From Raillietiella orientalis (taxonomy: Eukaryota), in contig JAYWIR010000038.1 of assembly GCA_036172245.1 (NCBI GenBank), forward strand, positions 992,001-1,056,000: a stretch of DNA of 64,000 nucleotides, written 5' to 3'. The notes under the pieces were generated by a model. It worked only from the letters and a program-made list of their open reading frames with translations, was not told the DNA's origin and made no database searches. The position numbers and the translations under genes were made by a program. This document shows, piece after piece, positions 761 to 62,582 of the stretch (position 1 is its first letter; each line of letters begins with the position of its first letter).

Positions 761-2507
761 AGCATCCTTCGGAGAAATTCTCTCTAAGAGGCAGCGCGTA
801 GCAGTGTCCGTGTGAGGCTGCCCGGAAGATACAGGATCGGATGCACAGGAAGCTGGTATCAGCTTGGCTTAGCCGAGGTTCTCAAGATGCTAACTAATGC
901 TGTCACTTTAGGGAGGCAGCTGGATGGACCGCCTTCGTCTGTGACGCGCTCAAGGGTGGAGTTCTTTTTCATTCTGCTTGCGAATGCAAGTGCAGTCCAT
1001 GGAGAGGCTGTGGAGCGCCTACTATAGGCGCTCCACAGCTGCTGAGAGCCTGTTGTCTTTCTGCTCTCATGCCGACAAGGAAAGTACCTGCGGTCTTATT
1101 GGTACTTGCTTCGAACCTCCCTCGCATCCGCAGACCTATGCTAGCCTATTGTCGTCCGCTCTGCCTGATTGCTTTGAGGACCCCCCAGTGGGAGCCCGTC
1201 GAACAACAACGCTCGTCGGTAGGAAGCACTAGGCACGCAGGTGCGCTCCATCACAGTCCACTCCTCTTCCATCCTAGAGTCATCACCGCTTGGGGGAACG
1301 CGGAGTGACCGCGGACTACCGCTGGGGCGTGTCGCGTGACCGTCCAAGACACCATGCCATCTTTCCTGCGTCAGTGGAGGAATGAGAAAAGGAGGCCGGG
1401 TCCCCTACAGAGTGGGAGTCACGGAGGTAAAGAACTCGATGAGGGGACCGGGGTTTGTCGAGCATACCCCGGTCCCCTCATCGAGTTCTTAGAAACTAGA
1501 GCTAGAGCTCAAAAGAAGGCGATAGGGTCTCTCACGCGGCGGGCTCGCGTGAGAGACCACGCCCAAGGGCCTTGCCCGGGGACCACAAAAGTAAATTGAG
1601 TCTCTTGACATCTTCCGGGAAACCTCGGTATCCCGGCCTGGTAGATGCCTTGGGCTTACAGGTAGAAGCCTCCGTCCTTCGCCTGCCCTGCCATCGCACC
1701 ACCATCACCTTGCTGGTTGTGCAATGAGACCTTCCTTGCAACGAGAGACGGTGACACACCTCCAGGAGGATTCCAAAAGAAACCCACCCGCTTATGAATA
1801 GTGAGAACTCTTTAGCAAGCGCTTCCAAGATGCATTGGTATGCAGCAAGGATGGAAGCGCGCCTCAGAGACACTCCTGGAGACCCGTTCGGAAGTTGGCT
1901 CGTCTCTTCGGTCTCGCCGGCTGCTGACAGGGCCTCCCTCCTCTCCGAGAACTGTCTGCTCTAAGCAAGCGATGGTCACCACTAACACCGAAAAAGAATT
2001 CTGGACACCATCCTAGAGGATCCTTCTTCTCTCCTCATTGGGATTGCAGAAAAACGGTTCGAGCCAGCAAGTGGCTCAAAATAAAGTCTCGAGACAGTGA
2101 CGCGCGCGCAGAGCATGTCTTAAGCGGTTGGCGAAAGAGGAGCGCCGTTTTCGGCCTTGTCGCTCTCGAAGAGATCTCTCTGGAGGCACAGGGGCGTGCA
2201 CCACCTCAGATCTCCTAAAGGCACCTGTCCTGAGATGAACTGGCGTCCTTCCCCCCCCCTCCTTCCCTCCCCTTCCCAGCTGCGTCTCTGTGCTCCCCTT
2301 TCGCATGCACACCAGACATCCGCCCTGTCAGGTGTAGATTGAAGGGATGCATCCTTGACGGCTTTCTGGACTGCCGCGTCCTTCGTTAGGATCGGGAACT
2401 CGTGCCAAGAGCTCTTTCTCACCGGAGGGACGTCCCTAAGGCCCTCGTGCGACGTTTCCTCGTAAGAGATGATGGGCCTTTGACAAACACTGCAGCCTCG
2501 CCCTCGA

Positions 2508-4639
2508 AGGTGCATTCGGCCTGAGGAAGTGCCGGGTACCTTGGCTGTCGCGGTCGATCTCCGCAAGGCGTTCGACTGCGTGAATCAGTATCTTCTTCTG
2601 GAGCTCCTGGAAAGCCTTGGTCTCCCGGTGCACCTCGTGGCCTATTTGCGCGCTTGCTGGCGCCACGCGCTGATCTCTATCTCTTTCAGCGGCTGCCATG
2701 TGTACGGCGTGCCGGTGCGGCGGGGCATCAGGCAGGGAGACAGCTTAAGTCCGTTGCTCTTCAGCATCTTCTTTGAGTTGGTGCTAAGGGCGTACAGGCT
2801 GACGCTAGCCAGCCTGCCGAGCTCTTGTCCAGCAACGCCGTCCGTGGCAGCCTATGCCGATGACCTGCTTCTCCTTTTACCCATGACCACCCCGGCGTCC
2901 AGTCTTGGAGATTTCTTCGAACTGATTCGTCGGGGAGCGGGCATGAGCGTAAACTGGAGCAAGAGCGTGGTCGTTCCTGTTGGTGCGGCGTGGGAGGGGC
3001 AGTCCGACTGTATCCGCCTGGGGATCCCGAACGCTTCGTCTTTCAAGTACTTAGGCGTCCCGCTGGGAAACATCAGCCCAGTGGAAGCGTGGTCGGACTG
3101 CCTTCGCAGGCTACGAGTGCTCTGAGCCCGTTCCACCTTGGCAGGTTCCTCCTGCCGGAGCGGGCCACCTTGTGGAACACCTTCGTTGCCCCCCTCTTAC
3201 GCCCCCTGCTTTTTGTTTGCCCGCCCCCCTACTCGGCGAAGCTTCAGGCGCACAGCCTGTTGAGGAACGCTCTGTGAGGACCTGAGAGGTCCAGGATCCG
3301 CCTCAAAGACTTGGCGGCTCCGCTTCGGGATGCCTGTTTGGGCATCCTGACGCTGGAGAGAATCGAGCTGCAGGTGCAGCTTCGAATGTTGGCCTTGTAC
3401 GCCAATCTTTGGTCCACTCCGTGGTGTGCTCCTGCGCGTCTGCTCCTGCGGCGCTGTACCGGCAGTGATGGACTTCTGCCGCTTTGGCCGCATACGGAGC
3501 GCGCCACGAGAAGCTTCGGTTTCCCCTTGAAACCGCTTTACCGGCTCCTGGCAGCCCAGGAATGGATCTCCTGCCGCCCAACGAACTTTGAAGCCTGGCG
3601 GCAGGAACCGTTGCATGCCTGGGCAAAGCAACAGGATGTTTCGCTCCTGGAACTCCGTTGCGCCAACCTCTCTCCGTACTGCACGGTGGATGAGGTCTGC
3701 AACAGCCAGGAGAAGTGGACTCGCCTGGCCGTCACGCCCCTCGCCGACGCGCTGTCAGCCCTCAGGGCAAGTGATGACAGCTGCCTACCGGCGAGGTGTG
3801 AGGTCACCTGCGCCATCGCAGGAGCAACACGACCCATAGTCGGCTGGAGGACTTGCGAGCTCGCAGACGCCGCCACGCCTCGCATCATCCCGAAGGGACT
3901 CCATCGGTGGAGTTAACATTTGAGTGTGCCTCCCGAAGAACTTGTGGTCCCTCCTTTGTGTTTGAACACTTCTGTGTTCCCTCTAAACTGGAAACAGGAC
4001 GTCATTATGCTGGTGCACTGGGGTTTTCACTCCGACCAGCGGACGAACCGTGTGTCCGGGGGAGTCGTCTCCCCGAACTGTAAGCGGTGCGGGGAAGTGG
4101 AAACGCTCCCGCACCTGCTCTTGGACCTCCAAGGACTGTGGCGAAGGCTGACCTCAGCTCTCCTGCACCGGGGGGACACCGCGAGAGACTTGATGCACCG
4201 CTTCTTCACGCCAGGCGGCCTGTCTCTAGGTGTGGTGGTCGCAACGGTGTGTTGCACCAGCGCCATCGACAAGGCCCACCGAGAGCTGGAGAAACTGGCC
4301 ATTCTTCGTCAGCCCACCGGAATAGCCGGCGTGAACATGGCGTCGGCTGCCGAGTGGGCCCATTTTCCAGAGGGCGTTAGGAGAGAGATCGCCAGCATCT
4401 ATCGCCGGTTCTGAAAGAATGAAACGGCCGCACCAAAGATCCCTGTCCCCTCCCCTCCCCATATCTTTATTTCTATTTTTTATATGTGTATTTGTGGTCC
4501 CCTCCCTCCCGTTCCGGACTTTCGGTATACCGACCTGCGTGTCGGGGATCCCCCTCCTTCGTTTCTTCTGTGTCCTCTGTCCGGGAACTCTGTTCCTGGA
4601 TCGTTTATTAATAAACGCCCCGGCGCACCCGGGTGACAA
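2508..4639 (+). mobile_element. 5'-truncated L1/Tx1-like non-LTR retrotransposon with 16-bp TSD
   Basis: RT motifs DLRKAFDCV, RGIRQGDSLSPLLF, YADD, FKYLG and C-terminal CKRCGEVETLPHLL. Flanked by gcagcctcgccctcga (2492-2507) and gcagcctcgctctcga (4640-4655). Ends ataaacgccccggcgcacccgggtgacaa. Confidence 0.92.
2529..4414 (+). pseudogene. Disrupted ORF2 (reverse transcriptase + C-terminal region) of the non-LTR element
   Basis: ORFs 2529-3125, 2990-3277, 3311-3916 and 3920-4414 join through one frameshift near 3120 and in-frame stops at 3275 and 3914. Confidence 0.88.
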
Positions 4640-4859
4640 GCAGCCTCGCTCTCGAGTTGCGATCGTCGCGTCGAGGCAGCTCGCTCTGCAGCGGAGCTTT
4701 CAGGACGAAAGCGACAGGCCATCTTCCTCCTCCTCCTCCTCCTCTTGGCTGTCCCCACTCCACAGGGAGCTGCGGGGAGCCCTCAACCGAATCGAGCGGC
4801 GAAGGGGGGCGTTGCCCGTATCGGAAGGGGGCCGAGGACCGTAAGGACCGGATTTCGAA

Positions 4860-10434: not shown

Positions 10435-10990
10435 AAATCCCCCACTCCATAAACTTCCTTTATGTTAAGGATATAGTTAACCTAAGCTTTTGTCCATACG
10501 TAGAATGTAATACATCAAAAAATGGTTCAACCTATACAAAAAGTCTTTTCTAATTTAACAGAACACTACACTTTCTGGCATCAACCAAAATTCATTTAAT
10601 TACCTTCGAAAATTCCAAAAAGTGCATACATCTGTAAGGACAGGCCGCCTAAAAATGCAGTTGTGAAAATAGAAAGGTCAAACTGTTGCAACAAAGTCAG
10701 GCAAATCAGTTCGTGTACAAATTTGTGAAAGCATAATAGTATAGCTAATTTCAAGGCATAGTGGAGCTATTATAAACAAAAAGGTTATGAGGTTAGGAAC
10801 AACGTCTACGAGTAAAATTTCACAGTGCCACTTCTATGTGCTATAATAGACTTAATTTATAAGGAAAACAAAGTTGGAAAAGTTGGGGGAATTTAGAGAG
10901 AACTGGATAGCAAGGACAGGAAGATTTTTATCTTCATTATTTTTTTTAACGGCTGATTGCGCTATCAATACGAAGTTTTTTATTCGAGCC

Positions 10991-11786
10991 GACCCGTGGG
11001 CGGCTGCAGGACCTGCGAGCTGGCAGACGCCGCCACGCCTCGCAACATCGCGAAGGGACTCCTTCGATTGAGTGAACACTTGAGTGTGGCCCCCGATGAA
11101 CTTGTGGTCCCTCCCTCCTGTTTGAACATTTCCGTGTTCCACCTTTCGTGGAAGCAGGACGTCATCATGCTGGTGCATTGGGGTTTTCACTCCAACCAGC
11201 GGACGAACCGTGTTTCCGGGGGAGTCGTCTCCCCGAACTGTAAGCGGTGCGGGGAAGTGGAAACGCTCCCGCACCTGCTCTTGGACCTCCAAGGACTGTG
11301 GCGGAGGCTGACCTCAGCTCTCCTGCACCGGGGGGACACCGCGAGAGACTTGATGAGCCGCTTCTTCACGCCAGGCGGCCTGTCTTTAGGTGCGGTGGTC
11401 GCAACGGTGTGTTGCACCCGCGCCATCGACAAGGCCCACCGAGAGTTGGAGAAGCTGGCTATTCTTCGTCCGCCCACCGGAAGAGCCAGCGCGAACATGT
11501 CGTCGGCTTCCGAGTGGGCCCATCTTCCAGAGGGCGTTAGGAGAGAGATCGCCGGTTCTGAAAGAATGGAACGGCCGCGCCAAAGACCCCTGTCCCCTCC
11601 CCTCCCCATATCTTTATTTCTATTTTTTATATGTGTATTTGTGGTCCCCTCCCTCCCGTTCCGGACTTTCGGTATACCGACCTGCGTGTCGGGGATCCCC
11701 CTCCTTCGTTTCTTCTGTGTCCTCTGTCCGGGAACTCTGTTCCTGGATAGTTTAGAAACAAACGCCCCGGCGCACCCGGGTGAGAA
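10991..11786 (+). mobile_element. 3' fragment of the non-LTR element (close relative of 3830-4639)
   Basis: Near-identical by eye to 3830-4639, including the 3' UTR and terminal hairpin. Confidence 0.9.
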
Positions 11787-12465
11787 ACAGTGGCGCTCTC
11801 CCTCTGAAGTGACAGGAGGTGGCGTTGCTGGTGCTGCATTGGGGAAGCCCATGCAAAGCACGTCTCCATCACTGGACACGGGGTAGTGTGGATGCCCGTT
11901 GCGAAAGGTGCGGCGATGTGGCAAGAAAGAGACTTCGCTGCACCTTCTGCTGGACTGTGCTGCCCTCCGACCCCTCTGGGATTATCTGTCGAAGATCTTA
12001 GATATTCCCGAAGGCGGTCCAGGGACATTTTGGGGAGCCTCTTCGTTCGTCCCGATCTGCCGTCAGCCGCGTCTGGAAGTTCCCTGCTGCATCCGCGAAA
12101 TCGTGGCGGCCTGGAACGAGAGAAGACGAAACCAGAATGGTAGGAACGCCATCCACTGGACGCGGGTCTTTCTAAAAAACGCATCAAGATGCCCCACCTG
12201 GGAAATAAAAGACCATAACTTGTCAGCATCCTAGAAAGGGTGCTGACAAGTTATAGTCTCCCCAACAAATACCTTCCTCTCTTATTTTTCCCTTTTTGTT
12301 TCCCTTTTTTGTCTTCCGTCTCCCTTCGCGGCGATAACGGACCTCGCCGGTCTACTGACCGGTGACCGGCAAGTTGGACTGACGTGGTGAACCAATCGGT
12401 TAACCACTGGATAACTCGTTTTGTACTTTTATTATCTTCATAATAAATGCCCATCCGGGTAATAA
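11787..12465 (+). mobile_element. 3' fragment of a diverged non-LTR copy
   Basis: LLVLHWGSPCKARLHHWTRGSVDARCERCG, HLLLDCAALRPLW, T-rich UTR, hairpins, and the end taataaatgcccatccgggtaa. Confidence 0.85.
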
Positions 12466-12879: not shown

Positions 12880-14100
12880 CAAATGGTCTGCTTCCGGGAC
12901 AGGAAGCGGGGATTCGGCTTCCCCCTTGGACGACCGACCCTCCCCTCCGGAAGCTCATAGATCTTTTGCCGCCCAATTGGAATCGAATGCCTGGCAGCAG
13001 GAGGCGGTTGTGTCCCGGGCTGGAAAACGGATGCGCCCAGCGGACCTTCGTCGCCTGCGACTCTCCCTTGACCATCCTTTGGTAGAGGTATTGAAGGAGT
13101 GGAAGACTCTGATAGCCGCACCTCTTGCCGCAGCACTGCCCGCTCTAAGGTCAATTGACGGCAGCAGCCTACCAGCGAGGTGGGAGTTCTCCTACTCCAT
13201 TGCATGAGTGACCAAACCCCTAAGCGGCTGGACAACAGGCGAGCTGGAGGACGGCGCCACTCCTCGACAATGACAAAGAGAGACTACGTCGGTGATCCGA
13301 ACCGGTCAGTGCGTCTCCCGGAGAACTCGTGGTCCTTCCCTTGTGTTGGAACACTGCAGCGTTTCCTTTGACCTGGGGCCGGGGCTGTACTGCTGTTTTT
13401 TCTCTAAGGGTTTCCGGTGCAATCAGCGTTGGCATCTCGTTTCCCGGGGGAGCCACATTCCCGAGCTATGCACCAGGGACGGGTCGGCGGAGTTGAACTC
13501 GTGCCTGCTATTGGACTGCGGTGACCTCCGCGAACTGTGGTGGAGGCCGGCTTTGGCACTCTGGTGCCATGGGGACACCGCCCACGACCTGCCTAGGCGG
13601 TCTCGTGCCCGACGGACTCTCGGCGGGTTCAGGCATCACACGACGATGAGTCGCGTCTGCGCCATCGTCACGGTCCGCCATGCGTCTGAGACGCAGATGC
13701 TGCGAAGGGGAAGTCGCCATGATAGCAGCCGAGCTACATGACGACCTGGAGCAAGAAGTGAAAGCGGAGGTCGCCGGCGTGCAGAGCCGGTTCTGAAAAG
13801 AAGAGACGGCCGACAGCGGCACCCTTCGTCCCCACCCACCCCTCATTCATTTAGTTACTTGCTTTTTGTCCCTTCCCACCTGTTCAGGACTTTTCCCAGT
13901 TTTTTTCTTTTCTAAAAGGAGCAGGACTAACCGAAGACCCATGTCCCCACACTCCCCATTCTGTTATTTATTTGTTTTCCCCTCTCTTCCGTTCCCGACT
14001 TGTCTCGACCTGCTTGTCGGTGGGCCCTCTCCTTGAACTTCCTTTGCCTTCGGTTGGGGACCAGCGTGCTCCCAAATGGTTTGTTTGTTTGTTTTTTCAT
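12880..14100 (+). mobile_element. Degenerate C-terminal/3' UTR fragment of the non-LTR family
   Basis: PLAAALPALRSIDGSSLPARWE..GWTTGEL matches PLADALSALRASDDSCLPARCE..GWRTCEL. Also LLLDCGDLRELW, and a UTR-like hairpin cgac-ctgctt-gtcg at 14006-14019. Confidence 0.7.
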
Positions 14101-17929: not shown

Positions 17930-18705
17930 AAGAGCAGACGTCCTTTCACGATCGGTGAGACAATCACCGTGATCGGAAAGCTTAGACACTTCTCGCTCGG
18001 ATAGACACTCCCTCCCATTGAAGTGGCAGGAGTCTGCGTGGATACTGCTGCACTGGGGTTTCCCATCCAACGCCCACCAGCATCATTGGACACGGATGTG
18101 TGTCTATCCGGACTGTGCCAAGTGCAGAGAGCGAAAATCGCTCCCGCACCTGCTTGTGGGTTGTGTTGCCCTCCGGCTCCTCTAGGAACGCCTCGCCATG
18201 ACACCAGGAACCCCCGCAGCAACTTCAGTGACGCTTTAAGGCTCCCCCTCCTATGAGAGACCCTTCGGTCAGCAGCCTCGCTCGCAACTCTCTGCAGCCT
18301 ACGTGGGATCGTCGCTGCCTGGAGCAACGCAAGAGGGGAACCGAACGACAGGGGTGCCACATCCACTTTGCCATCCGCTTCATGAGGATGGCAACAAGAT
18401 GCCCCACTAAAGAACGGTATACAGCAAGAGCTTGCCGGCATTCCCGAAAGGACGCAGAGGACCATCCCCAGCAAGACATGACCCCGTCCCGCACCCCCCC
18501 AAAGTTTGTTTATTTTCAGCTTTATTTCCTAACCCTTTTGTTTGTCTCCTACCCTCGGCTGTCTTGGCAGACCTCACCGGTCTGCGTACCGGTTACCAGG
18601 CAGCCTCCCATTGGAATGCACGTGGTTGGACCGGCGGTCCAACCACAGGGATTGTGAAAGTTTATTTTTTATGAAAGAAACGCTTCGGCGCACCCGGGTG
18701 ATAAC
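17930..18705 (+). mobile_element. Internally deleted non-LTR copy
   Basis: The pre-RT segment PFTIGETITVIGKL (17941-17982) abuts the C-terminal segment LPLKWQESAWILLHWG. Full 3' UTR hairpins and the end cggcgcacccgggtgataa are present. Confidence 0.8.
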
Positions 18706-20290: not shown

Positions 20291-21150
20291 CTGGTCAGTC
20301 AACGGGACATCCGGTGGTTTAAGGATTCCGCAGTTCGGGCTTACACTCCCCCGGGTACAGTCAGGTCGGCGGGCGTTGCACGGGAGGCTCCAGTACAATA
20401 GCAGGGCTGCCGACTCCTGCCACTTTAGGGGAAGGGTAGCACTATTGCAACATGCTGGGGGTCACTTCATCTCCTCCGGAGGAATTTGAAGCAGTTCTTC
20501 CCAGCGTAGCAGTCCTTTGGGTGAGACACTCAGGGTCGCGGCGTCCGCCAGACCCCGAGTTGCCCACTCTCTCAGGTGTATTTTCGTGTTTCGTATTACG
20601 CAGGTCACTTCCCACCTCGTTGGCAGCTGGCGGTCTATCGCTTTCCTTAGGGAGGGCAGCGCTGAGGCGACTGGGGTGAATTGAGCCCACAGCAGATTCC
20701 TGGTGTTCCCAGGATCTCCCTCAGCGGCTGGCGGACGTATCTGCTGTTCCGTAGGCAGATGCACTCTGCTTCGTCCGTATCGTTGATTCTTTCCCATGAG
20801 AAAACAGGATTCCTGCAACCAGGCTGTCCAGTTAGCGGGGAGGATGGAGATCTAGCAGATCTGCACAAAGGCAACCATGTGTCGGAGCTGGGGGGCCAAA
20901 ATGGCCCAGACTTCACTCCGTGGCCAAGACGACCGAGATCAGTCCTTCGCAGCCGGTTGCCTGTTTGGCGAGGATTCTTGCGAGAGGGCACCAGGGTGTC
21001 GTCCAGAGCTTGGATGCGAGGGCGAGTGTGTGGAATCGGAGCTGTCGCTCCATTCGCTCCAGCGTAAGGAGGTCCAGTCCACCATACCTACGCGGAGCAC
21101 AGACGTCTTTTAAACGGACTCTGTACTCCGCGAAGGTGAAGAAACGATCA
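20290..21150 (-). mobile_element. Non-LTR ORF2 C-terminal fragment
   Basis: RVRLKDVCAPRRYGGLDLLTLERMERQLRFHTLALASKLWTTPW, LADAAT, WSLPCNARR. Confidence 0.85.
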
Positions 21151-23299: not shown

Positions 23300-25904
23300 C
23301 TCACGACCGGCGAAATTCTCTCCGGGATCAAAAGGCTCAAGAGGCATAAGGCACTAAGGGAGGACGGCCTGCCCGTGGATTTTTTTCAATGCTTCGCGGC
23401 AGAGCTGGCCCCCCTGGCGCTCGAACTGACAAGACCGATCCGAGACGAAGGCGATGTTCCTGCCTCGTTTCGGTCAGCCAGGGTGAGGCTCCTTCCTGGG
23501 AGGAGACCTCAGAAAATTAAACAACTGGCGTCCGATCGCTACTGTGAACACGGGCGCCAAGTTAGTGGCATGACTGTGGGCCGCGCGTTTGGGGCAGGTG
23601 GCCCACTCCATAATTAGCCCGGAGCAGACTTACTCTGTTCCCGGGCGAAGTATGGAGGCCAACCTCTTCTTCGCGAGCACATGGTTTCACGTGCAGCGAG
23701 AAGAAACAATGAAAGGGCGATTTATCGGCAACCTTGCTTCGGGGCCGCCAGCCGGGCAGGGGAGGGGCAATCAGGCGGGGAAGGGAGCCTTAGCGATCGC
23801 AGTTGATCTCCATAAGGCGTTCGACTGCGTGGATCAGGAGCTTCTTTTGGAGCTCCTGGATCGCATGGGATTCCCACCCTCCTTAACAACCTACCTGAGC
23901 TCCTGCTGACACAATGCGCTTATAAACGTCAATTTCAGTTGTCAAAACGTGTACGGCGTGTACGGTGCGGCGCGGCATCCGGAAGGGCGACAGCCTGAGT
24001 CCCCTGCTCTTTAGCACCTACTTCGAGTTGGTGCTGAGAGCATACAGGGCGACTTTGGCTGCCTTGCTGAGCTCCCCGATACTCCCGCCGTAGCAGCCTA
24101 TGCCGACAATCTTCTGCTCTTGTTGCCCATGTCCGCCCCGGCGACCGCAGTCGAGGACTTCGATCTGCTGGGCCGCGGGACGAGACTGCGGGTAAACGAA
24201 GCAGAGTCGTCGGTGGTGGCGGTTGGTACGACGTGAGTCGAACGGTCTGACTGGATGCCTACGGCCGAGTAATTGAAGTACCTTGGCGTTCCGCTGGGGA
24301 ACTTCTGCCCGTCAGAAGCCTGGTCAGGCCGTCTCCAGAAAGTGGAGTTGGCGATCGGCCCGTTCCTGGAGGGCAAGTTCCACTTTCCGGAACGGGCCGC
24401 AGTATGGAACGCGTTTGCCCCTTCCATCCTTGCCCCCTGCTTTTTGTTTGCCCCGTTCCCCTCCTGTTGAAAAAGAGGACGAAGGACCTCCTATGCATCG
24501 CTCTCTGGGGTAAAGGGAGGCCGCGAGTGCCTCTGATGGACTTATGCGCTCCACGTTGGGACGGAGGCCTTGGTCTCCTGACGCTGGAGCGCTTGGAAAT
24601 CCAACTGCGATGCCGCACCATGGGCATCGCAACGAAGTTGTGGAGCACCCCTTGGTGGGTTCCGGCCCACCTTCTTGCCAGCCGTGTCTCCAGGACGCAA
24701 GGACTCGCGTCTTATCTTCTGTGCCCCGGCCGGAAGATTCGAAGATGCGGCCTGCTCCTTGGACGCATGGCGTCCCTGGCTAAGGAAAACGGCTGGATGG
24801 TTTGCAGCCCCGCAGGAGATCGCTGCACGTGGGCGAAGATGCATGAGAGAAGCCACGAGACGTGGAACTGTCTGCGTGTTGGCCCATACGCCCGCCGCAC
24901 CCTGCGGGAAATACTTGAATTTCCCGCGAGTTGCACGTGGGCAGAGACGACCCCCCTTGCTACGGCGATGCCCTACCTCCGGAGGGCGCTTAGAGGCAGC
25001 CAGAAGCCGAGGTGGCAAGTCTCCTGCCGAATCGCAGGCAGGGAGAAGATGTTAAGCGGCTGGACCACAGGAGAACTGGCGGACGCCACGACCCCGAGCG
25101 TCCAGCCGAGAGCACTTTTGCGATGGGGCGAGCTGCTCGCCATCCCCATGGATGTGCTGAAGTGGCCCCCGGTGTTGTTTGAATCAAGGATCCTGCCCCT
25201 TAAGTGGCAAGAATCGGCGCTGCTACCGTTGCATTGGGGTTTACCCTGCAACGCACGCCGCTTCCACTGGACAAGGGGAGCGGTGGATCCTCATTGTGCC
25301 AGGTGCGGAGAGCGGGAATCGCTCTCCCACCTACTTGTTGACTGTGCTGCCCTCCGTCCCCTCTGGGAACGGTTCGGGACGACCCTCGGTCTCCCTGTGG
25401 GCAGCCAACCCAGCGACGTTTTCCGTCTTCTCTTCGTTCGGGACGCCCTTCAGCCAGCTGCAGCCGTGGCAGCACTCTGCTGCATCCGAGGCATCGTGGC
25501 GGCCTGGAGCGATACCAGCGAGGAGGGAGTGGATTCAAACGCGATGGTTGTCATCCCATATGCTGTTCGCTTCCTGCGGAGAGCTATTGGATGGCCCCAG
25601 ATGGGAAGATTGAAGATGGACCTCGAAGGTATCCTGATAAGGATGGACCCTCCTCAAAGTGGACCGTGATTGCTTCCCTTCCCTCCAAAAACTCTTTTTT
25701 TTTTCTTCTTTGTTTTCTGGTTTATTTTTCTTTTTGTTTTTCCCCCCATCCCCTTCCAATGCCGTGGAGAGTCACACCGGGCTGCGTCCCGGTATCCCGG
25801 CAGGTCCGGCATTACGTGGCCGTTAGTGGGGCCTTGTACCACATACTGTAATGACAAGTGAAACGTTTTTTTTTTAATAAACGTCTCGGAGTTCCCGGGT
25901 GGCA
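23300..25904 (+). mobile_element. Non-LTR retrotransposon copy: decayed RT plus intact C-terminal region and 3' end
   Basis: DGLPVDFFQCF, ISPEQTYSVPGR, VDLHKAFDCV, KYLGVPLG with multiple frameshifts. Open frame 24404-25669 with CARCGERESLSHLLVDC. Ends aataaacgtctcggagttcccgggtggca. Confidence 0.92.
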
Positions 25905-26200
25905 TCTCCGGGAACTGCCCACAACACCAGTGGGGTCTCTTTCTTTGTGAAGCCAGCCGTCGACGCTGCCGTGAGGAGCGTGCGCTTTGATGACGACGGT
26001 CGGGTCGGCCAGCTGATTCTCAGGTGGTCCGAGTCGATCGATCTGATCGTCACAAACGTGTACGCTCCCAGCGGTAAACAGGGTTACCAGGAACGCAATG
26101 CGTTGCTGGAAACCTTGAAGCGCAAATGGCTGGTGGATACGGACGTGCGAAAGGCGCATCTGAAAGCAGGGGATTTCAATCTCCGCCTGCTCTCAGATCA
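25905..26200 (+). mobile_element. APE-type endonuclease fragment of the non-LTR family
   Basis: SGVSFFVK, DGRV, TNVYAPSG and AGDFN motifs of L1-type endonucleases. Confidence 0.85.
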
Positions 26201-26844
26201 GCCCGGAGAGCAGGGGAAGAACGAGAGGCAGTTCCCGGAGAGGGGGAGAGAAAGGGGAGGATGGCGCGCCGGATTGGAGTCCCTCCCTTCCCGGTCTGCA
26301 GCGGATCCCAGGGCTAGCAAGTGCGTCTAGCGGCCCTTTCGACTGCAGCCCTTCCAGGCGGCCTCTTTGTCCGCGGTCCACCAATCCACGCGCCAGGCTC
26401 CAGGGTCGAATCCACGCTTCTCTTTCTGTCAAACCTCGAAACGCACTCCCCGGGACGATGGCGTCGGACACATCCTCGCGGTCTGGTCCCTCTTTCTCCG
26501 GATTCCCCTGGCGCCCTTGGAGCATAGCAGAACGGCGACTTCCAAATCACACAACGGCGTGTCTGCTGGTGTCTAAGAACTGCATTTTCTGGCATCCTCT
26601 CATAGAACGCATCCATTTTCCTTTCTTTTTTTTCCTTTTCTGTCACCCCAAACATGCACGAAGTCTAGGAACCAGGGTGTATCTCCAATGTCCTCTCAAA
26701 GACGTTTCTATGAACATCTCGCTATTTGCAGTGCTGCACATCTAACTGAATGTTCGTCAGTTCATAAAAGTTACTTATTTATTTTGCTAGAAACGACCAT
26801 TTCTGAGAAATTGGAGTGAAAGGTGGATGTGATGTGCACAAGTG

Positions 26845-29130: not shown

Positions 29131-29579
29131 TCAGGGCAGCGCCGACCTACCTCGCTGGGGACCCGGGCGCCTTCGTATGGTCGCGACTGCGAGGCAGCAA
29201 CAACGCCATTTTCTGGCTACTCGCCACACGCCTCGGGATTTCGCGCGCGGGTAGACATCGCAGATGCCGCATCCACTTCTCAGCCATCGAGACCGTCATC
29301 CCGGGCTGGGGCTGTGGCCCCTCCCTCTTCCTTGACGGGAAGACATTCCTGAATCCCCTTGTTGAGCAACGAGGTCTTCGAGGCAACTCCTTGGCCCCAC
29401 GGTGCTTTTCTCTGGAGGCCGCCCGACCTACGTCTCTCCTCGTATGGCAGGAGCGAAGCGAAAGGAGGGGGAACAGGGAAGGGGGCGAAACGAACGTTAA
29501 AAAGTTAAAAAAGAGAGGGACAGCATAATCCTGGCAAAGTGATAATTAACGTGCTGCATAGCAGCAAAGACAAAATCTA

Positions 29580-30422
29580 TGGACAACTCAGGAGGTCACG
29601 GACGCCGCTACCCAGAGTGTCCAATCCCATGGATTTCTATGGACTGGGGAGAGCTGCTCGACATCCCTCCGGAGGAGGTGGAGCGGCCATTAGCATTCTA
29701 GAGCAGTGACGCTCTCCCCCCCCAAGTGGCAAAAGTGGACGCTGTTGGTGGTGCATGTGGGAATCCCGTGCAAATCACATCTTCATCCCTGGACATGGGG
29801 AAGAGCGTGGAATCTCAGTGCGACAGGTGCAGGAAGAAGGAGACCCTCCCGCGTCTGCTGTTGCGCTCTACTGCCTTCCGACCCCTTTGAAATTGCCTCT
29901 CGACCATCCTAGGATTCTTGGTGGGCGGCCCCAGAAACATTTTCAACCTCCTCTTCGTGAGTGCTCCACTGCCGCCAGACGCATCCCTGGCAGTTCTCTG
30001 TTGTGTTCACGGATCATATCGGCCTGAAACGCCAGGAGAAGAGGACGAAAAGGCAAGGACGCCATTCGCCGGACGAGGATCTTCCTGGAGACCACCTAGA
30101 GGTAGCCCCGTTTAAACATTATACGGACGGAACTTGCTAGCATCCTAGACAGGATGCAGAGGATGCCAGGAAACGTACTGTGATCCCTTCCTCGGTTCCC
30201 CCCTCTCCCCATGAAAACTTCCCCCCCCCCTCCTTGTTTTATGTGTTTATCTTTCTGTGTACGTTTTGTTTTCCCTTCTCCCACGCTGCCGAAGCGGACC
30301 TCTTCGGTCTGCGTATTGGTCTTCGGCAGGTTCATTCCTCGTGGTACAACCACGGGTTCTACCACAAAAATGTATTTTTATTATCTTATGTAATAAATGC
30401 CCCGGTATAACCGGATGATAAG
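29580..30422 (+). mobile_element. 3' fragment of a diverged non-LTR copy
   Basis: PKWQKWTLLVVHVGIPC..WT, T-rich UTR, hairpins, and the end taataaatgccccggtataaccggatgataa. Confidence 0.8.
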
Positions 30423-33400
30423 ACCGCGGACCGTTCCAGCAAGTAAAACTTGCCTTCTTGGAACGGACCGAGCGACCTGCTCTGCATTCTGAAGATGGCC
30501 GGACCAGGTTTCCGCTACGCAGTAGTCCCTCAACGGAACACCCAGGTACTTCAATTACCTATCCATGGGGATTATCAAACGAATCTAGTTTGGCGGTCCA
30601 GACCACGCCGCACCAACTGCCACCACAGACGACTTCTCCCTGTTCACCCTCAAGCTCGAACCGCGGCTGAGCAGCTCGAAGAATCCCTCCAGTGCAGATG
30701 ATGGGGTGGACGTGGAGAGCAGCAGCGGAAGATCGTCCACGTACGTTGCAACGGCAGACGTGCAGGGACATTCGCGCGGCAGGTGAGTCAGACTCTTCCT
30801 GCACACAATTAGCACCAATTCGAAATGCGTGCTAAAGGGCAGGGGGCTCAGGCTGTTGCCCTGCCTCACGCCGCGTCGCAACGGTACGCCGTGAACAGTC
30901 TGCCCGCCGAAAGAAACATGAATGAGCACAGGCAGATCCCAAGAATGCGGTCGGGAAGCCCATGCGTTCCAGGAGCTACGGAAGAAGCTCCTGGTCCGCG
31001 CAGTCGAACGCTTTTCTCAGATCGACTGCGACCTCTAGGGCTTCTCGACCCTGACCAGGGTTGCCGACAACTCCTTTCTTTCTTCTATCTCCTCTTTGGG
31101 TCTCAAACCATCTACTGGAGAAGAGCAGGTTGGCATCCGTACTTCTCCCGGAAACAGCTTAGGTCTGCTCCGGGCTAATTACGGATTCCATCACTCCCTC
31201 AGCCCATAGTCTCGCCAGCAACTTGGCGTCCGCGTTCGGGACGGTTATCGGACGCCAGCTGCCGATTAATCTCAGATCTCCTCCCTTAGGGATGAGACCT
31301 TTGATGGGAACGAGGCAGGAACGTCGCCTGAATCCCTAATCAGCAAGGTTAACTTGTGCACCAGGGTGGTCAACTCTGCCGCGAAGCACTGGTGAAACTC
31401 CTCAGGCAAGCCGTCCTTTCCTGGCCCCTTCCGTCTCTTGAGTTTTCCGATCATGGTGATTGTCTCACCGATCGTGAAAGACTCGTGGAGGCTTTCCCTC
31501 TCCTCTTTCCCTATCGCTGGAGCACCATCCGGCAGCAAAAGTTGAGAGAAATCTCGCTCCGTAGGTGCACTTGCGTAAAGGGAGGAATGAAATCTCCTTA
31601 TTAAACTTCTCACCTGTGCCGGAGTCGAGTGTTCGTGTCCCTAGTCGTCCAGCAAGCTGACTGACCCGGACTGCCAGGCTTGGCACTTAGCCCCGGCCCT
31701 GTACTCTGCCAGGCTACGCAAGATGGGGTTCTGCTGTAACATCGGAGTGCAAGTTCGCCCTTTCGCTATGGGCCGCTTCTCGAAACTCTGCGGGCAGACG
31801 GTCCGGGGGAAACTGACCGCAGAACTCTCTGACCCAGCGTTTCAAACGATCCCAGTTCGGAAGATTCTGGAGGGTCAAGCCTCTCAGGAATTCGCGGAGA
31901 TGTTCCTCTGCTCCTGAGAGGTTCTGTCAGTCTCCCGGAAGACCCACACCTTGGATGGAGGTCCTTTGTATCGTGGGCATGGCTATGTGGCCACTGAAGA
32001 TTTTCCTGTGGAAAATTTGCAGTAGCTCCCCGTGCTTATGAACACCCGCACCCTCGCACTGAAGTGGCAGGAGTCGGCGCTGCTGCTGCTGCACTGGGGC
32101 CTCCCGTGCAACGCCCGTTAGCATCACTAAGCACGGGTGTGTGTTGACCCAAACTGTTCAAGGTGCGGGTAGCGGCTAGAGGACTGTGCTTCCTTCCGGT
32201 CCCTGTTATTGGGCTGTGCTGCCCTGCGACACCTTTGGCAACACTTTGCCGCGGCCCTTGGAACCCCTGTTGGCAACCTCAGCTCCAGGGACGCTGTAAG
32301 ACTCCTCTTTGTGAGGGATACCCTGCAACCAGCCGCAGACCCAGCAGCACTTTTCTGCCTCCGCGGGATCGTGGCGTTCGCGTGGAGCGACGCCAACGGA
32401 GGAAGCAACGACAGGAACGCCACCCACTTTGCTCTTAGCTTTCTACGGATAGCGGTAAGATGACCCCACCTGGATAATGACATGTAACAAGACCTTGCCT
32501 GCATCCTCCAAAGGATGCCGAGGACCGCCCCCAGTAGACTGTTCTCCCTTCCCGAACCCCTCCAAAACTGTTTTATTTTTATTTTGTTCCATTTTCTTTT
32601 TGTTTGGCCACTCCTCTCTGCTGCCGTGGTGGACCTCACTGGTCTGCAAACCGATAAAACGGCAGGGTACATACGAAAAGGACGTAGTTGAACCACCGGT
32701 CCATCCACACAAACGTTTGAAATACGCCGGGGATAATATATTAGTTAGTTCCGGGGTACCCGGGTGAAAATTGTCACGTGGGCAAATCTGAAATTCGATC
32801 CGGGAATGGACGGAGAGAGTCGATCGATCGCCGACCCTTGGGCACAGGTCTCGGTCTAGGAAGACATGGTCGATGCTGTCCCTCGTCCCCGGTTGTCCCT
32901 CTAACAATTTGCGCGCGCGCACTGCTGAGCACAACTCGTTGGCTTCATGATGCTCCTGTGCATGCGGCTCAAGTGAAAGCAGGTGGAGCAAGTTGGAGTC
33001 TCCGCCCATCAGGTGCGCCCTGCGGACACCTGCCTCGGCCAACCACTCTCTCTTTAGGTCATTCAAGAACGTGGCAGTTCTATTCGCGTACCCGTTTTCG
33101 CCTCCGGGAGCATACACGTTGGTCACGAAAAGGTCGATCGAGTCGTCCTACCTGAGAACCGGTTGGCCGACCCGACCTTCCTCGTCGAAGCGCAACCCAC
33201 GCGTCGGCTGCGTCGACGGTTGGCTCCAGAAGGTGGACCACCTCACGGGATTTGCGGCACGGGACCGCAACGCCACGACAGTCGTCCTTCCACAATTCTT
33301 TCGATTTCCCGGATTTCCTCCACGGAGATGACGTGGATCTTCTACAGGAGCACCAGATCGAAGTTTCGCAGCCTGGTGGAGACATTTTGTTTTTTGTCAT

Positions 33401-33450
33401 CGCCGCGCAGCCCGTTGATATTCCAGCGGGCCGCACGGATTCTGCGCGGG
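30423..33450 (-). mobile_element. Decayed non-LTR ORF2 (endonuclease at ~33450-32780, RT at ~32000-30423) interrupted by a plus-strand copy
   Basis: WNINGLR, TNVYAPGG, GGDSN, IDHVF (endonuclease). KGPGKDGLPEEF, RGVRQGNSLSPL, YVDDL (RT). Confidence 0.85.
32040..32770 (+). mobile_element. 3' fragment of a non-LTR copy nested antisense in the 30.4-33.4 kb copy
   Basis: LKWQESALLLLHWG, CAALRHLW, LFCLRGIVA, UTR hairpins, and the end ccggggtacccgggtgaaaa. Confidence 0.82.
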
Positions 33451-34530: not shown

Positions 34531-37026
34531 AAGGGCTGGAGCGGAGGAGGAGGTGCCGTGCGCTTTCCCAGATCAGCGCCCCCCCCTTTTCCTGGAAGGA
34601 ACCCGCTCCTGGTCATCTGGAATACCCTCCTGGAGTCGTCTGCCTTCGGGACCGCCGTTCGTTCCGACGTGCCCGGGGATTCATCTCGCAGGAGGGCCGC
34701 GTTGGTCCCAGAAGACTCAAGGGAGGGACGGACGGACGGCCCGTGGCTCGACGCGCGGAGACTGGCGGGGCGGGCACGACAGCACCCCGAGACACCCGGG
34801 ACGCCGGAGGCAGCAGAAGCGAAAGGGTCAGATGCGAGTTCGAGGAAGTCAAGGCGGTGCATCTTCCCCGCCGGGCACGGCGCCGCTACCTGTTGGAGGG
34901 AAAGAAAAGGCCAGAAGGACAGCAGTGAAGCGGAAGAGGCGCGCGCCAGCCCCTGCACTCGGTCACAGGGGCGGTCTCCATGGCGTTTTGCCCCCTCCCC
35001 CACCGGTCCGGGACGGCACCGCACCCGGCACCCGCGGGTCGCCGCCATCCACCCCCACCCTCCCGCGCAGTCGCGAGAATCCTAGAGTGGGGACGGACCG
35101 GTTTTTCTCCCGGACCCTCCGACGCGGTCTGCTGCCGGCGGTCCCCCGTGGCGAAGAGCCGGGTCCCCGTCGTCTCGCGACGCCCCACGAGCGCGGAACC
35201 TCGAGGAGACGGACGTTCCTCTCGGCGGGCCGGCTGGCTTTTCGCGGAAGGACGGCGGCGACTTTCCCGCCGCCGGCGCTGCTGTGAGCGCGGCCATCTG
35301 GCGGGGAACGACCGGTATCACACGACTCGCTGGGGACCAAGAGCAAGGAATCCGTCCCGCAAGGAGTCCTTCTGGATCGAGGAGGGCGGCGCTTAGCCCG
35401 CGCAAAATGTGTGTTTTTTCTCTTTTCTTCCTGTTGCTGCTGACGTCAGAAGAGGACGGGTGGGAACGTCGGGAGGTGGCGCGCAGTCCTCGTCCGCAGC
35501 AGCAGCCTGGAGGATCCTTTCGAGCGGGTTAGGAGTCGCCCGCCCCTAGGCGGTGACCTCGAGTCGCGAGCAAGCCCTCCGGCCTCGCATCCGGGCGCAC
35601 ACGGACGACGATGGTGGTCGGTCCTCCGCACAGGGCCGCAGGGGGGCATAAGAAGGCGTCCCGGGGACCTCCGTGCTTCCCTGAGAGTCCGGGAAGCTCC
35701 GCACGCCGCCGGGGTCGCACGAGAGGGAGAACGTGAGCGATCTTCCCGCGGGAATCCCCGGGGGTTCCCGCCCGCTACCACACGCTCCTCACCGGAAGGA
35801 GCGGCTCTCTCGTTCCCTTCCGGTTCCGCCTGCCGCGCCGCCCGACCTCTCACACGCGCTGCCGCCCGAGTCTCCGCCAGCTGGAGCTGCAGCCGCCCGC
35901 CCGTGGGAGGCGTCTGGGCGCCGCGGATGAGGGCTGCCGCCGTCGCCGCTGCTGCTGCTGGCAGAGATGGATTTCCTTCCAGAATTCCCCGGCGCCGAAC
36001 AGACCGCGCCCGAGGGGAAGTACGCGCCGAAGCGGAAGTCCGCTCCTGTCCCCTCCCCCTCTGTACCTGGGAGAATCTCCGCTGGATATCTCCGGAGAAT
36101 GCCAGGGGCTAAGAGAGGGAGGGGGGGTGGGAATCTCCCGAGAGGAGAGAAGGGGGAGTCGCGGAGACTTCCAGGAAGGGGAGAGACTGCGGAGGAGGAA
36201 CGGGATGCATAGAGGACCCCACGGGGGAAGCGCCCGGTTTGGGGGAGGGCCGGTAGCACCGGAAGGAAGCCGTTTTGGGGAAACTGTCGGGTCTCAGGCG
36301 GATGAGGGCAATGGGGAGGGGAGAGAAGAGCCTCTCATTTCTCCGGCCAGGGAGTGGCTCTGCGCTGCTAAGGTCGGCTGGAAAGAGATGGCGCAAGCGA
36401 GCCCCCCCAGGGGGAGTGGGAAGGGGGTGGGGACTGCGTCCGGCACGATCCTGAGTGAAACTCGTAGGGCCGACGTCTCCGTTCTTCAAAGGGCCGCATT
36501 CACTCAATGGAGGGGGTCAAGGGTAAGCCGCGCCACCACTGCGGATGACCCCCGGAACTTAGATGGGAGGAGTCCCAGGAGAGGTGCACGTGGGAGAGAG
36601 GCAGAGGGAGGGGGACCTTTAGGAAGGCCGAAGAGACGGCACCATTCCCTCTTTGTTGGTCCGGGGGGCAGGTGGGAGATCGCGGGTATTGAAGAGCCTC
36701 CCGGGCACGGAGAGGGTATCGAAAAGCCCCCATTGAGCTGCCCTTGGGGAAGGAATGAAGGTCGGCACTCACCCCAGCGACTCCACGGAAGCTCGCAGTC
36801 GCGTCGTCGTCGTCGAAGTTTCCCCTTTCCCCTCCCCCCTTCCCCTCCGAAGACTGGGATGAGGCAGAGGCACAGCCGGTGGCAGGTGAGAAATCCTGGG
36901 AGGCGGAGCCAGGGAGCGTGGGTGGGCGGCGGTGGCGCAGGTCTCGAGTCGAGAGGCGGCAGCAGGTGTTCCGTCCCCTCTTCCGCACGTGCTCTTTTCG
37001 TCCCTGGCCCCCTCGCCGGAAGGGCG

Positions 37027-38409
37027 AGGGGTCCCGAGTACCTCTGAGGGACTTGTGCGCTCCACGTTGGGACGGAGGCCTTGGTCTCCTGACGCTGGAG
37101 CGCTTGGAAATCCAACTGCGATGCCGCACCATGGGCATCGCAACGAAGTTGTGGAGCACCCCTTGGTGGGTTCCGGCCCACCTTCTTGCCAGCCGTGTCT
37201 CCAGGACGCAAGGACTCGCGTCTTATCTTCTGTGCCCCGGCCGGAAGATTCGAAGATGCGGCCTGCTCCTTGGACGCATGGCGTCCCTGGCTAAGGAAAA
37301 CGGCTGGATGGTTTGCAGCCCCGCAGGAGATCGCTGCACGTGGGCGAAGATGCATGAGAGAAGCCACGAGACGTGGAACTGTCTGCGTGTTGGCCCATAC
37401 GCCCGCCGCACCCTGCGGGAAATACTTGAATTTCCCGCGAGTTGCACGTGGGCAGAGACGACCCCCCTTGCTACGGCGATGCCCTACCTCCGGAGGGCGC
37501 TTAGAGGCAGCCAGAAGCCGAGGTGGCAAGTCTCCTGCCGAATCGCAGGCAGGGAGAAGATGTTAAGCGGCTGGACCACAGGAGAACTGGCGGACGCCAC
37601 GACCCCGAGCGTCCAGCCGAGAGCACTTTTGCGATGGGGCGAGCTGCTCGCCATCCCCATGGATGTGCTGAAGTGGCCCCCGGTGTTGTTTGAATCAAGG
37701 ATCCTGCCCCTTAAGTGGCAAGAATCGGCGCTGCTACCGTTGCATTGGGGTTTACCCTGCAACGCACGCCGCTTCCACTGGACAAGGGGAGCGGTGGATC
37801 CTCATTGTGCCAGGTGCGGAGAGCGGGAATCGCTCTCCCACCTACTTGTTGACTGTGCTGCCCTCCGTCCCCTCTGGGAACGGTTCGGGACGACCCTCGG
37901 TCTCCCTGTGGGCAGCCAACCCAGCGACGTTTTCCGTCTTCTCTTCGTGCGGGACGCCCTTCAGCCAGCTGCAGCCGTGGCAGCACTCTGCTGCATCCGA
38001 GGCATCGTGGCGGCCTGGAGCGATACCAGCGAGGAGGGAGTGGATTCAAACGCGATGGTTGTCATCCCATATGCTGTTCGCTTCCTGCGGAGAGCTATTG
38101 GATGGCCCCAGATGGGAAGATTGAAGATGGACCTCGAGGGTATCCTGATAAGGATGGACCCTCCTCAAAGTGGACCGTGATTGCTTCCCTTCCCTCCAAA
38201 AACTCTTTTTTTTTTTTTCTTTGTTTTCTGGTTTATTTTTCTTTTTGTTTTTCCCCCCATCCCCTTCCACTGCCGAGGAGAGTCACACCGGGACGCAGCC
38301 CGGTGTCCCGGCAGGTCCGGCATTACGTGGCCGTTAGTGGGGCCTTGTACCACGTTCTGTACTGACAGATGAAGCGTTTTAATAAACGTCCCGGCGTACC
38401 CGGGTAGCA
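37027..38409 (+). mobile_element. Young 5'-truncated non-LTR insertion with perfect 14-bp TSD
   Basis: tcgccggaagggcg at 37013-37026 and 38410-38423. The frame is uninterrupted to the stop at 38180. Near-identical to 24520-25904. Confidence 0.95.
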
Positions 38410-39358
38410 TCGCCGGAAGGGCGGGAAAGCACCTGGGAGAGGCGTCCGGTCAGCGACCTTCCGGGTCTCCGGGTCCGGCGCTGCCAACGGCCCCTGACGG
38501 TTTCATCTCTGAGCGGGAGGCGTGCCCAGCGCCGGAAACAGGGAGGGGGCAGAGCACAAGGGAGGCGGTGGCGGCGCCCCTTTCGCGCGCAGGGGGTGTG
38601 TGTGCCCGGCAGCAGAGCCACCTGCGCTTCCGAACAGCCCCGAGACCTCCTCGGCCTTGCTTGCGCGCCAACTTCTCCTCCTCCTCCTCACCCTGTTCCC
38701 CCCCCCGTCGGGGATTAACGAACTTGATAAGCAGATGATTCATCCGCCTGACATCTGCCGCCGCGTCTCACCGCGGGATCATGAGCGCCCCCTCTCAGTT
38801 CTCCCGTTGCCGTGAGACGAGGAGCATCCTCGACGGACACACCACTCGGTGCAGATGCTCCCCCCCTCCCGGGAGGCGCCTCCCCCCACTTCCCTTTGCG
38901 TTCCCGAAAGAGTCTTCCCAGCCCGAAGGCAGGAACTGAGCCACGTGATGCCGCTGAGCGCGTGACTTTCCCGGCGCGAAGGCCTGATCCGACCATGCAA
39001 GACAGGTAACGGCGGCGGCGGTGGTGCACGGGGCGGGCGCTTCCCGTTCCCTCGGAACGAGAGGGAGGAGAAAGAGGAAGGGGAAGTCTTGGCGGACGGT
39101 GCCGCTCGGTCTGGGAACGGGCAGGGAGGGAGGGGACTCCGCGCGCGCGAGGGGCGGCGTCCCCCTTCGGGATCGAAGGGGGGTGAGGGGAGGAAGCGCA
39201 CCTTCTTCGCCGACATTTTTGCCCCCTTCCGACGCCGGGAAGCGGGCCGACAGCTTGCGGCTCCAGCATCGCCCCCTTCTGGCACGGACCTGCATGCGGA
39301 TTCTTGCAGGTGGCTGACCCGCGGCTTCCCAGGTGCAGCGGCAGAGGGGAAAGTCTCT

Positions 39359-60568: not shown

Positions 60569-62582
60569 TCATATCACATTTTTTGCATTCTTTGACGATA
60601 CTGACTTCCTAGAATTGCATGGATCACTGACTCTACTCCCATTATTAGTGAGCTCAGCTTGCACAGAACATCTGTCTTTAAATCGCTTTACCACTGGAAA
60701 TATAAACTAGCAATACGTTAAGGTATCATGACCTGTTTACCTGCAGAAGTGTCATCAATATCTACTACATTAATACTCGCACTTCCCCCAGCTGCCAAAA
60801 CAAAAGGATCATCAGGAGATAGAGCAAGAGATAACAGAGATCCCAATTTTAGGTCCTTTTGGGCCACAAATGATGGGCTTGGAAGGCAAACATCCCAGAC
60901 TTTCATTATGTTATCGGAGGATGCAGTTATCAAGAGACCATTACACAATCTGCTCAGTTGTAAGCCTAAACAGGCATTTTCATGAGCCTGGAGCATCCAA
61001 ATTTGTGGAGCATTTCTTATATCATAGCAAAACACTGAGCCCTGATCAGTAGACACCAAAAACTGAAAGGGCTGGAACACATTCCAAATCACATGCTCAG
61101 TTTCCAGTCCAGAAAAGTAAGCCCTGGTGGATCTTTGAGGCACCCGTGTGTCATGTAATAGCACATTCCCATCACAGCCACCAGTTAACAATACTGACAT
61201 CTCAAAAGGGTGCCAGCAAATGTCTTGCACTTTGTCAGTGTGACCAGACAGTTGGCTTGTAACAGTCACTGTCTGCAGATCCCATGTTAATGCAGTGTGA
61301 TCAGCAGAGCTACTGGCAAGTTCCAATCTGCTCTTCTGCTTTCAACTGATTAAGTATTTTGCTTTATACAGTACCTGTTGTTGGTGTTCCAGGAAAGTCC
61401 TAGGACTGCATCTTTATGTCCCAAATTGTTCTTCCTCAAAAGGTTCTTTTTACCCAACTGCACTACTGGTTCCTGGCAGTTGATAATATCCATGTCCCAA
61501 ATATCAATAATAGGACTCATACTGCCTATAGCCAGCAAATTTCCTGATTGCAAATATTCTGGATCATGCTGAACAACCTCACAAGTAAGAGGTATTGAAG
61601 GCAGTAACAAGTCATGGTGAACATAGAGTTCCTGCCTCTGTTTGTTGTATACTGAACTCTATGCCTATTGAACAAAAGCTAGACTCACCATATATTTCCA
61701 AAACACTGATATCCTTATCAATGTGGCAAGCAGCAATCAAATTATCATCTGGATAAATATGAATATCATCTTCCTCAGAATCGAAATCCGAATCTGAATC
61801 CATCAAGAGATGGGGGTCATCTTTATCATCCAGGAATACTGCCAAGTTGTCCAAATTCAGCAATGAATCAGTATGCTCTATTGCATGATTAGAAACCATA
61901 TTACTAAATTACATGGTACCTGCATCATCATCATCATCATAAAGGTCTAAAGCATATCGTTTCTCTAGCTCGGAAAATTCTTCAAGTTTCTGTTTTTTCA
62001 TAAATGACTTCTTCCTTTGTTCTTCTGCATGTCTCTTTGGCTTTGATCCCTCATGCATATCCAAATTGTCAACATTTCTGGAAAAGAATAAAATACTCCC
62101 AATTTTTTTTTTTTTTGAAACTGACTCAGCATCCACTTTTGGGTGTTTCAAAAATGCTGCAAGTTCTTCTTTGTTCAGCTCAACCTACAAGTCACAAGAT
62201 AAGGATAAATTTTCATTCACAAGACATACTACCTTAAACAATAACTACCACGATAGCAAAACTTTTAGCACGAATTCATATAAATGATTAAAAGGAAAAC
62301 CGTTGGCATTCATCAAAATCACTACTCACATGAAGACTCTGGCAAGATTGCAATAAAAGTTTTGATGTCTTCTAAATCTATTGTTTAAACATATACGTAA
62401 GCACTACGTACATACATAAACATTTAAAAAATTGAATGTGGGTTCTGATAGTGGCATAACATAGTGTGTTTCCTTTTATACATGCAATGAAACCAGACAA
62501 GCTAAAAAGTGGCTCTTACCTTATGTGGAATTGATGTGGCAATCCCCTTTTGCACCCATGAAATGCAAGAGATACAACTCAT
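60569..62582 (-). CDS. PWP1: Periodic tryptophan protein 1 homolog (WD40 repeat), 7 exons
   Basis: Exons 62582-62520, 62184-62126, 62077-61920, 61877-61689, 61651-61375, 61327-60741 and 60693-60569 splice in frame at GT-AG sites. Motifs: CISWVQKG..P.KVEL.KEE, acidic region, VYN..LYVHHDLLLP, GNLLAIGSM.P.IDIWD.D, GHKDAVL.LSWN, HTDKVQ. Confidence 0.93.

Follow-up and report, generated by a model that had tools for sequence, protein, structure and literature searches.

A tailless L1-group retrotransposon lineage of Raillietiella orientalis with a fixed 3' end behind a conserved hairpin

We analysed a window of 64,000 nucleotides from the Raillietiella orientalis assembly GCA_036172245.1 (contig JAYWIR010000038.1, positions 992,001 to 1,056,000 of the forward strand) and extended the searches to the 210-Mb assembly that holds it. 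The window is a nest of LINEs belonging to one lineage, in which ORF2 fragments of either orientation are interleaved with plus-strand copies that run to a common 3' terminus (Table 1). ORF2 fragments of this lineage are also present at 20330-21131, 30413-31941 and 32545-33425 (-), and at 25917-26213 (+) and 13094-13663 (+). The window also holds a minus-strand ORF at 6130-7296 with a weak match to GNAT acetyltransferases (E 0.003), a host gene exon with WD40 repeats at 60718-61341 on the same strand, and a near-perfect inverted repeat of 61 bp at 1430-1490.

Table 1. Positions of the LINE copies and of their 3' features in the window (TSD, target-site duplication)
Feature	Position	Strand	Remarks
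Left TSD, copy B	2492..2507	+	16 bp, one mismatch
Copy B, 5'-truncated	2508..4639	+	RT (RVT_1 E 1e-17), terminus as in copy A
Right TSD, copy B	4640..4655	+	16-bp repeat, one mismatch
3' fragment of copy B type	10984..11786	+	terminus with AACAAA
3' fragment, different subfamily	11786..12465	+	7-nt deletion in terminal hairpin
3' fragment	18009..18704	+	AAGAAA in terminus, stem decayed
Longer copy of subfamily A	23300..25905	+	spans RT to terminus
3' fragment with terminus	29516..30421	+	
3' fragment	32002..32770	+	terminus kept, AATAAA disrupted
Left TSD, copy A	37014..37026	+	13 bp; 14 bp if T37013 is counted
Copy A, 5'-truncated LINE	37027..38410	+	98% identity to 24524-25911
ORF2 C-terminal remnant, copy A	37027..38180	+	zf-RVT-like C/H motif near 37670-37880
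Hairpin H1	38270..38314	+	outer CUGCCG/CGGCAG stem, inner CCGGG/CCCGG stem
Hairpin H2 region	38325..38353	+	covarying hairpin in most subfamilies; divergent form in the copy A subfamily
AATAAA	38381..38386	+	downstream of U-rich tract
Terminal hairpin H3, CCCGG-N5-CCGGG	38390..38404	+	strict-motif matches, conservation, pairing, folding
6-nt terminal stretch, consensus TG-NNAW	38405..38410	+	exact element end
Right TSD, copy A	38411..38423	+	direct repeat

An initial annotation of this window had listed eight copies of the terminus under one consensus. All eight are present on the plus strand, each downstream of ORF2 C-terminal homology; four are decayed, and only that at 4639 matches the consensus exactly, with those at 11786 and 38410 each differing from it at one position. 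The two copies described as bounded by TSDs do have them, that at 2508-4639 with the repeat given in Table 1, while the end of the other, copy A, lies at 38410 and not at 38409. Positions 38381-38410 read AATAAA, CGT, CCCGG-CGTAC-CCGGG and TAGCAT, and are adjoined by a direct repeat in which 38410-38423 equals 37013-37026 over 14 bp. T38410 is nevertheless an element base: L044 and L064, copies of the same subfamily, have it without a T before their left flank, and this places the end of copy A at 38410 and leaves a TSD of 13 bp. The 98%-identical copy at 24251 has a zf-RVT match with E 0.002, below the curated cut-off. An apparent TSD of 8-9 bp for the copy ending at 25905 was discarded, as it sits within ORF2.

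Searches of the whole genome with a strict form of the terminal motif recovered 426 exact matches against none in a reversed control, and a loose pattern in which the stem was left free recovered 3,784 against 103; these are matches, some of them counted twice, and nearly all of the 100 loose-pattern matches listed have a recognisable stem. The motif was not found in viral contigs. Six or more A's follow it in three of the 3,784 matches, the same number as in the control, and no run of A's in the 20 nt past the motif exceeds five at any of the 192 distinct junctions, the only simple repeat among these being a stretch of C's in flanking DNA. The precise, tailless junction after the hairpin that had been proposed from the copies in the window therefore holds genome-wide. 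The same terminus is reached when the motif is left unused in choosing loci: it ends 26 of 30 loci picked by zf-RVT, 30 of 30 relatives of the copy B protein and 28 of 30 relatives of the copy A DNA, and the remaining six, in which the motif was not seen, have no tail either.

Such a pattern might be an artefact, with tails decayed or collapsed in the assembly or a hairpin contributed by a repeated target, and many of the insertions do lie in repeats, other copies of the LINE included. However, the TSDs abut the element end, copies with an intact ORF2 of 1,200 aa are tailless too, and 67 of the 192 flanks have a homologous, motif-free counterpart among the loci fetched, so that the hairpin is not target DNA. 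Moreover, long runs of A occur commonly in other parts of the assembly, and their survival there means that the missing tails are not due to homopolymer collapse. The empty sites, the count of three in 3,784 and the surviving A-runs refute this explanation, which we regard as having next to no probability. Neither of the two conditions that the initial annotation named as refuting, A tails on most TSD-flanked copies and a hairpin supplied by the target, is borne out.

TSDs of at least 11 bp were recovered for 47 of 180 junctions, against 10 without any peak at a control offset. Counted from the final GTG of the motif, they start at +4 in 24 of the 47 and at +3 in 11, the latter attributable to a flank base that matches by chance, with the other 12 scattered. 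The element end is fixed at 6 nt past the stem. After GTG, A occupies the third position at 177 of 180 junctions; the fourth position has A at 157 and T at 20, and a templated terminal T marks the end as encoded by the element rather than as the remnant of a tail.

Full-length copies bounded by TSDs measure about 5.5-5.8 kb, and the lengths of 46 copies range from 111 to 5,821 nt with variable 5' truncation. A separate upstream ORF1 of about 570 aa contains zf-CCHC knuckles. The roughly 1,200 aa of ORF2 comprise an N-terminal APE endonuclease (Exo_endo_phos, E 1e-12), an RT (RVT_1, E 3e-18) and, at the C terminus, a zinc motif whose zf-RVT match (E 0.004) does not reach the curated threshold; among solved structures human L1 ORF2p comes closest (E 5e-47), ahead of R2 (E 8e-11). 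Four full-length copies (L147, L149, L143 and L073) have in common a GACGT-(G/C)TT word, no more than about 15 nt from the TSD, that resembles the Drosophila LINE downstream promoter element. What had been annotated as one family comprises dozens of subfamilies: the terminus is common to subfamilies that are 61-100% identical in RT and about 38-47% in the C-terminal part, and the UTRs upstream of it are unrelated and fall into 32 clusters.

The best protein matches are Tx1-like (28-31% identity), and outside relatives are at most 37% identical, apart from two JGI metagenome proteins at about 70% (P0001, 67-72%; P0130, 70%) that lie in or near the lineage. In three trees, whose references are database matches labelled by host name rather than Repbase entries, the subfamilies form one clade, sister (support 99) to a second lineage of the same genome. 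Quick trees place the RT with L1/Tx1 and apart from RLE and the other clades (SH-aLRT 99 and 98), and membership in the L1 group in its broad sense (L1/Tx1) is supported. The earlier label "L1/Tx1-like" stands as to the L1 group; its Tx1 part departs from the three trees, which place the lineage on the L1 side and outside the cluster that holds Danio BAC82609 and an alligator TX1-like protein, though forcing it into this cluster was not rejected (p-AU 0.081). Both lineages have long stems, and attraction in the trees is possible. We thus have a deep-branching non-LTR lineage of the L1 group, of APE type, with two ORFs and a large copy number. A metagenome scan returned 64 loci, mostly 20-35% identical with a few short segments higher and none of them of the lineage; four (L219-L221 and L226) are distant L1/Tx1-type elements of ordinary form that end in AATAAA and an A-rich tail. 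The ESM Atlas gave generic APE-RT clusters only, and P0123, the top match over the full protein library, was rejected because its score was due to internal repeats.

In most subfamilies the 3' UTR contains, in this order, H1, H2, a U-rich tract, AATAAA and the terminal hairpin H3. H1, a hairpin with a CCGG stem, lies 65-117 nt upstream of the motif and is found at 131 of the 192 junctions and in one of 185 control windows; a pseudoknot considered for it was dropped, since CGGCAG pairs with an upstream arm in the fold. In copy A the H1 loop (38288-38303) reads as the reverse complement of CTGCGT, the loop that is usual elsewhere and present in the 98%-identical copy near 25790; this is a micro-inversion between the stem arms. 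H2 sits 30-55 nt upstream of the terminal hairpin and covaries: six of its nine pairs change on both sides, in 28 cells, a value reached in none of 500 shuffles, with the relatedness of the rows uncorrected; the 27 rows of this alignment are 22 of 62 representatives, picked for showing H2, and five copies from the window. AATAAA is kept at 150-159 of 160 copies per position (94-99%), 24 nt before the end. The lineage has a conserved, structured 3' end, as stringent-type LINEs do.

The standing of H3 itself is less straightforward. The initial annotation took it as a structure, and its complementarity is indeed kept (97.7% of cells in the 27-row alignment) while its loop, with 50 variants, is its most variable part; a different sequence at the end of the sister lineage also forms a stem. 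On the other hand, there are no compensatory changes in H3 among the 180 junctions or the 27 diverse rows, and the fold of H3 alone is no more stable than those of shuffled sequences (z -0.55 and -1.27). It might therefore be read as sequence, as inverted half-sites or a protein-binding word, with H2 as the real structural signal; departures from the stem resemble CpG decay, and the unpaired flanks (AAAYG, TG and the terminal A) are conserved like the stem. We consider this quite unlikely given the kept complementarity and the stem of the sister lineage, and in all other steps it is compatible with the mechanism that we favour below. H3 is conserved in sequence and in complementarity, and its structural role is putative.

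The 44 TSDs scored for target preference are 9-15 bp long and GC-rich, roughly (A/C)CN then NC in counts pooled over the subfamilies, and none of them opens with a run of A's. Microhomology with the element end is near chance: 28 have none, 14 have a single nucleotide and two have 2 nt or more. Together with the variable 5' truncation, these TSDs are signatures of target-primed reverse transcription (TPRT), which had been proposed for the element from the outset. They also set aside, along with the RT, a Helitron-like end, compared by the generally known features of Helitrons. Target preference differs by subfamily, as do the TSD starts, which are subfamily-specific; insertions recur at a single ORF1 site in related copies (L071, L072, L021, L025, L027, L029 and L030), with a head-to-tail junction in L072 and the site empty in L073 and L031, and repeated use of such a site by several subfamilies has given rise to nested and tandem arrays. 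Two canonical L1 features are accordingly absent, the poly(A) tail (3 of 3,784 with six or more A's) and the TTTT/A target (none of 44 TSDs with an A-run). In human L1, poly(A) pairs with a T-rich primer to start synthesis (PMC4014453); with GC-rich targets and no copied tail, priming of this type cannot apply here.

The mechanism that we favour, at a probability of roughly 0.55, is that ORF2p binds its own structured 3' UTR (H1, H2, the U-rich tract, AAUAAA and H3) in cis and in a stringent manner. H3 would position the protein such that cDNA starts at one nucleotide. Integration by TPRT, the fixed last base 6 nt past the CCCGG/CCGGG stem and the lack of a copied tail are shown by the junctions themselves. 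The RNA is probably polyadenylated or read through at its end, in which case the part beyond the fixed point would be skipped. Priming would therefore be independent of the poly(A):T-tract pairing of mammalian L1. Several points tell against this mechanism: H3, lacking covariation and of ordinary stability, could be a sequence signal instead; the rows behind the covariation of H2 were partly picked for showing that hairpin; no partner SINE was found among the ends sampled; and an RLE-type element of the same genome (L213, below) is tailless too.

In the main rival, the RNA itself would end untailed at the fixed base, through host 3' processing or an undescribed ribozyme, with RT starting at the free 3' end. 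Histone mRNAs are processed in a comparable manner, at a stem-loop plus a few nucleotides and without tailing, and the geometry of a stem plus 6 nt, the one-base precision with its templated terminal T (20 of 160 junctions), the near absence of even short tails and a sister lineage of the same plan would all suit such an RNA. Yet AATAAA is nearly invariant, at canonical spacing and after a U-rich tract, and Rfam searches of ten loci gave no ribozyme at E up to 1 and no histone stem-loop, which removes a known self-cleaving ribozyme at the end from consideration. Internal initiation by a LINE RT, furthermore, has a precedent in tailless retropseudogenes: L1 can make tailless copies of other RNAs that are truncated at defined positions (PMC5322556). 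An untailed RNA is on this evidence possible but rather doubtful, and the earlier description of the 3' end as non-adenylated does not sit well with the spacing of AATAAA, which may well fit an RNA that is polyadenylated and whose tail is simply not copied. The bolder form of the idea, an L1-group branch that does without poly(A) altogether, its RNA cut untailed at a fixed base and its cDNA started without pairing to the target, we consider unlikely; it would amount to R2-like precision in an L1 enzyme of APE type, in two sister lineages about 30% identical and with thousands of copies.

The sister lineage, 26-32% identical to the first, is the second L1-type lineage among the strongest RVT_1 matches in the genome. 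Its 3' end consists of a U-rich tract, AATAAA, a CCCAC/GTGGG hairpin and a short stretch with a final three or four A's; this terminus has 132 matches against none in the control, and six or more A's occur in two of the 100 matches listed. Should the sister relation hold, the plan of AAUAAA and hairpin without a tail would predate the split of the lineages, its sequence having turned over. One sister-lineage copy (L207:350-489, minus strand) directly adjoins a U4 snRNA gene (Rfam, 75.6 bits) from about its nt 20 onward, within an array of RT matches spaced 5.2-5.7 kb; we know of no LINE that targets U4, and our literature search found none. A further element, of RLE type with a PD..D motif, lies antisense in 28S rDNA (L213:1-490 and upstream), presumably about 16 nt from the R2 site, and L208-L210 hold related RTs of this type. 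It too has a tailless end soon after AATAAA, and a host-wide trait of 3' processing could contribute to the tailless ends.

The initial annotation set these elements against L2/CR1-type LINEs, a contrast that was overstated. The maize LINE1-1_ZM lineage, of the L1 clade, has a stringent 3' end and a hairpin with compensatory changes, and Chlamydomonas L1-1_CR has its 3' end in common with a SINE and ends in poly(A) (PMC3472496, PMC3747384). In these, as in Raillietiella, the 3' end is far more conserved than the body; the lineage here differs from L1-1_CR in its lack of a tail, and has a one-base-precise end and three hairpins. Comparative work usually takes a SINE with the same 3' end as the sign of stringent recognition. 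The maize and Chlamydomonas elements both have partner SINEs, whereas none with a fixed 5' end was found among the 192 of about 3,700 ends sampled in Raillietiella, where eight short TSD-flanked copies have eight different 5' ends. PMC3472496 gives poly(A) ends for 224 of 233 flowering-plant L1 families and lists, without description, 9 of the 233 plant and 5 of 15 algal families as having no 3' repeat; a poly(A) tail is part of the definition of L1s in PMC5203782 and, for Celine, PMC11288735.

Tx1 elements (Xenopus Tx1, Keno, Kibi and Koshi) prefer multicopy sequences as targets (PMC4494074). The Raillietiella lineage is like these in APE and RT, a zinc-knuckle ORF1, a preference for multicopy targets and nested insertion, but it branches outside the Tx1-like cluster. 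The zebrafish L2 elements ZfL2-1 and ZfL2-2 are of another clade and end in short tandem repeats, which are absent here. Their ORF2p binds the 3' stem-loop of its own RNA (PMC4176376), whereas stem-loop recognition is a working model in our case. R2 priming needs no complementarity between RNA and target (PMC4014453), but R2 has an endonuclease of the restriction-like type and one target site in 28S, against an APE-type enzyme and many targets here. Human L1 is similar in the domain order of ORF2, the range of TSD lengths and 5' truncation, and differs in its snap-velcro pairing of poly(A) with T-rich DNA (PMC4014453) where this lineage is tailless and has GC-rich targets. Our literature search, with Repbase, Dfam and the primary Tx1 papers outside its scope, found no description of a tailless, precise, hairpin-ended lineage of the L1 group, and PMC4585706, PMC8501958 and PMC4640811 gave nothing further on tailless L1-group ends. 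The lineage is a variant of stringent-type LINE behaviour inside the L1 group and not a new kind of element.

Dependence on poly(A) is a textbook property of the L1 enzyme, and explains both its T-rich targets and its capture of host mRNAs. An abundant tailless lineage of the L1 group is a natural experiment on the evolution of relaxed versus stringent recognition, a question posed in PMC3472496. With dozens of subfamilies that have one terminus and differ in H2 and in targets, the rules of RNA recognition and of start-site choice become directly testable, and an enzyme that makes scar-free 3' junctions is of interest for insertion tools based on retrotransposons.
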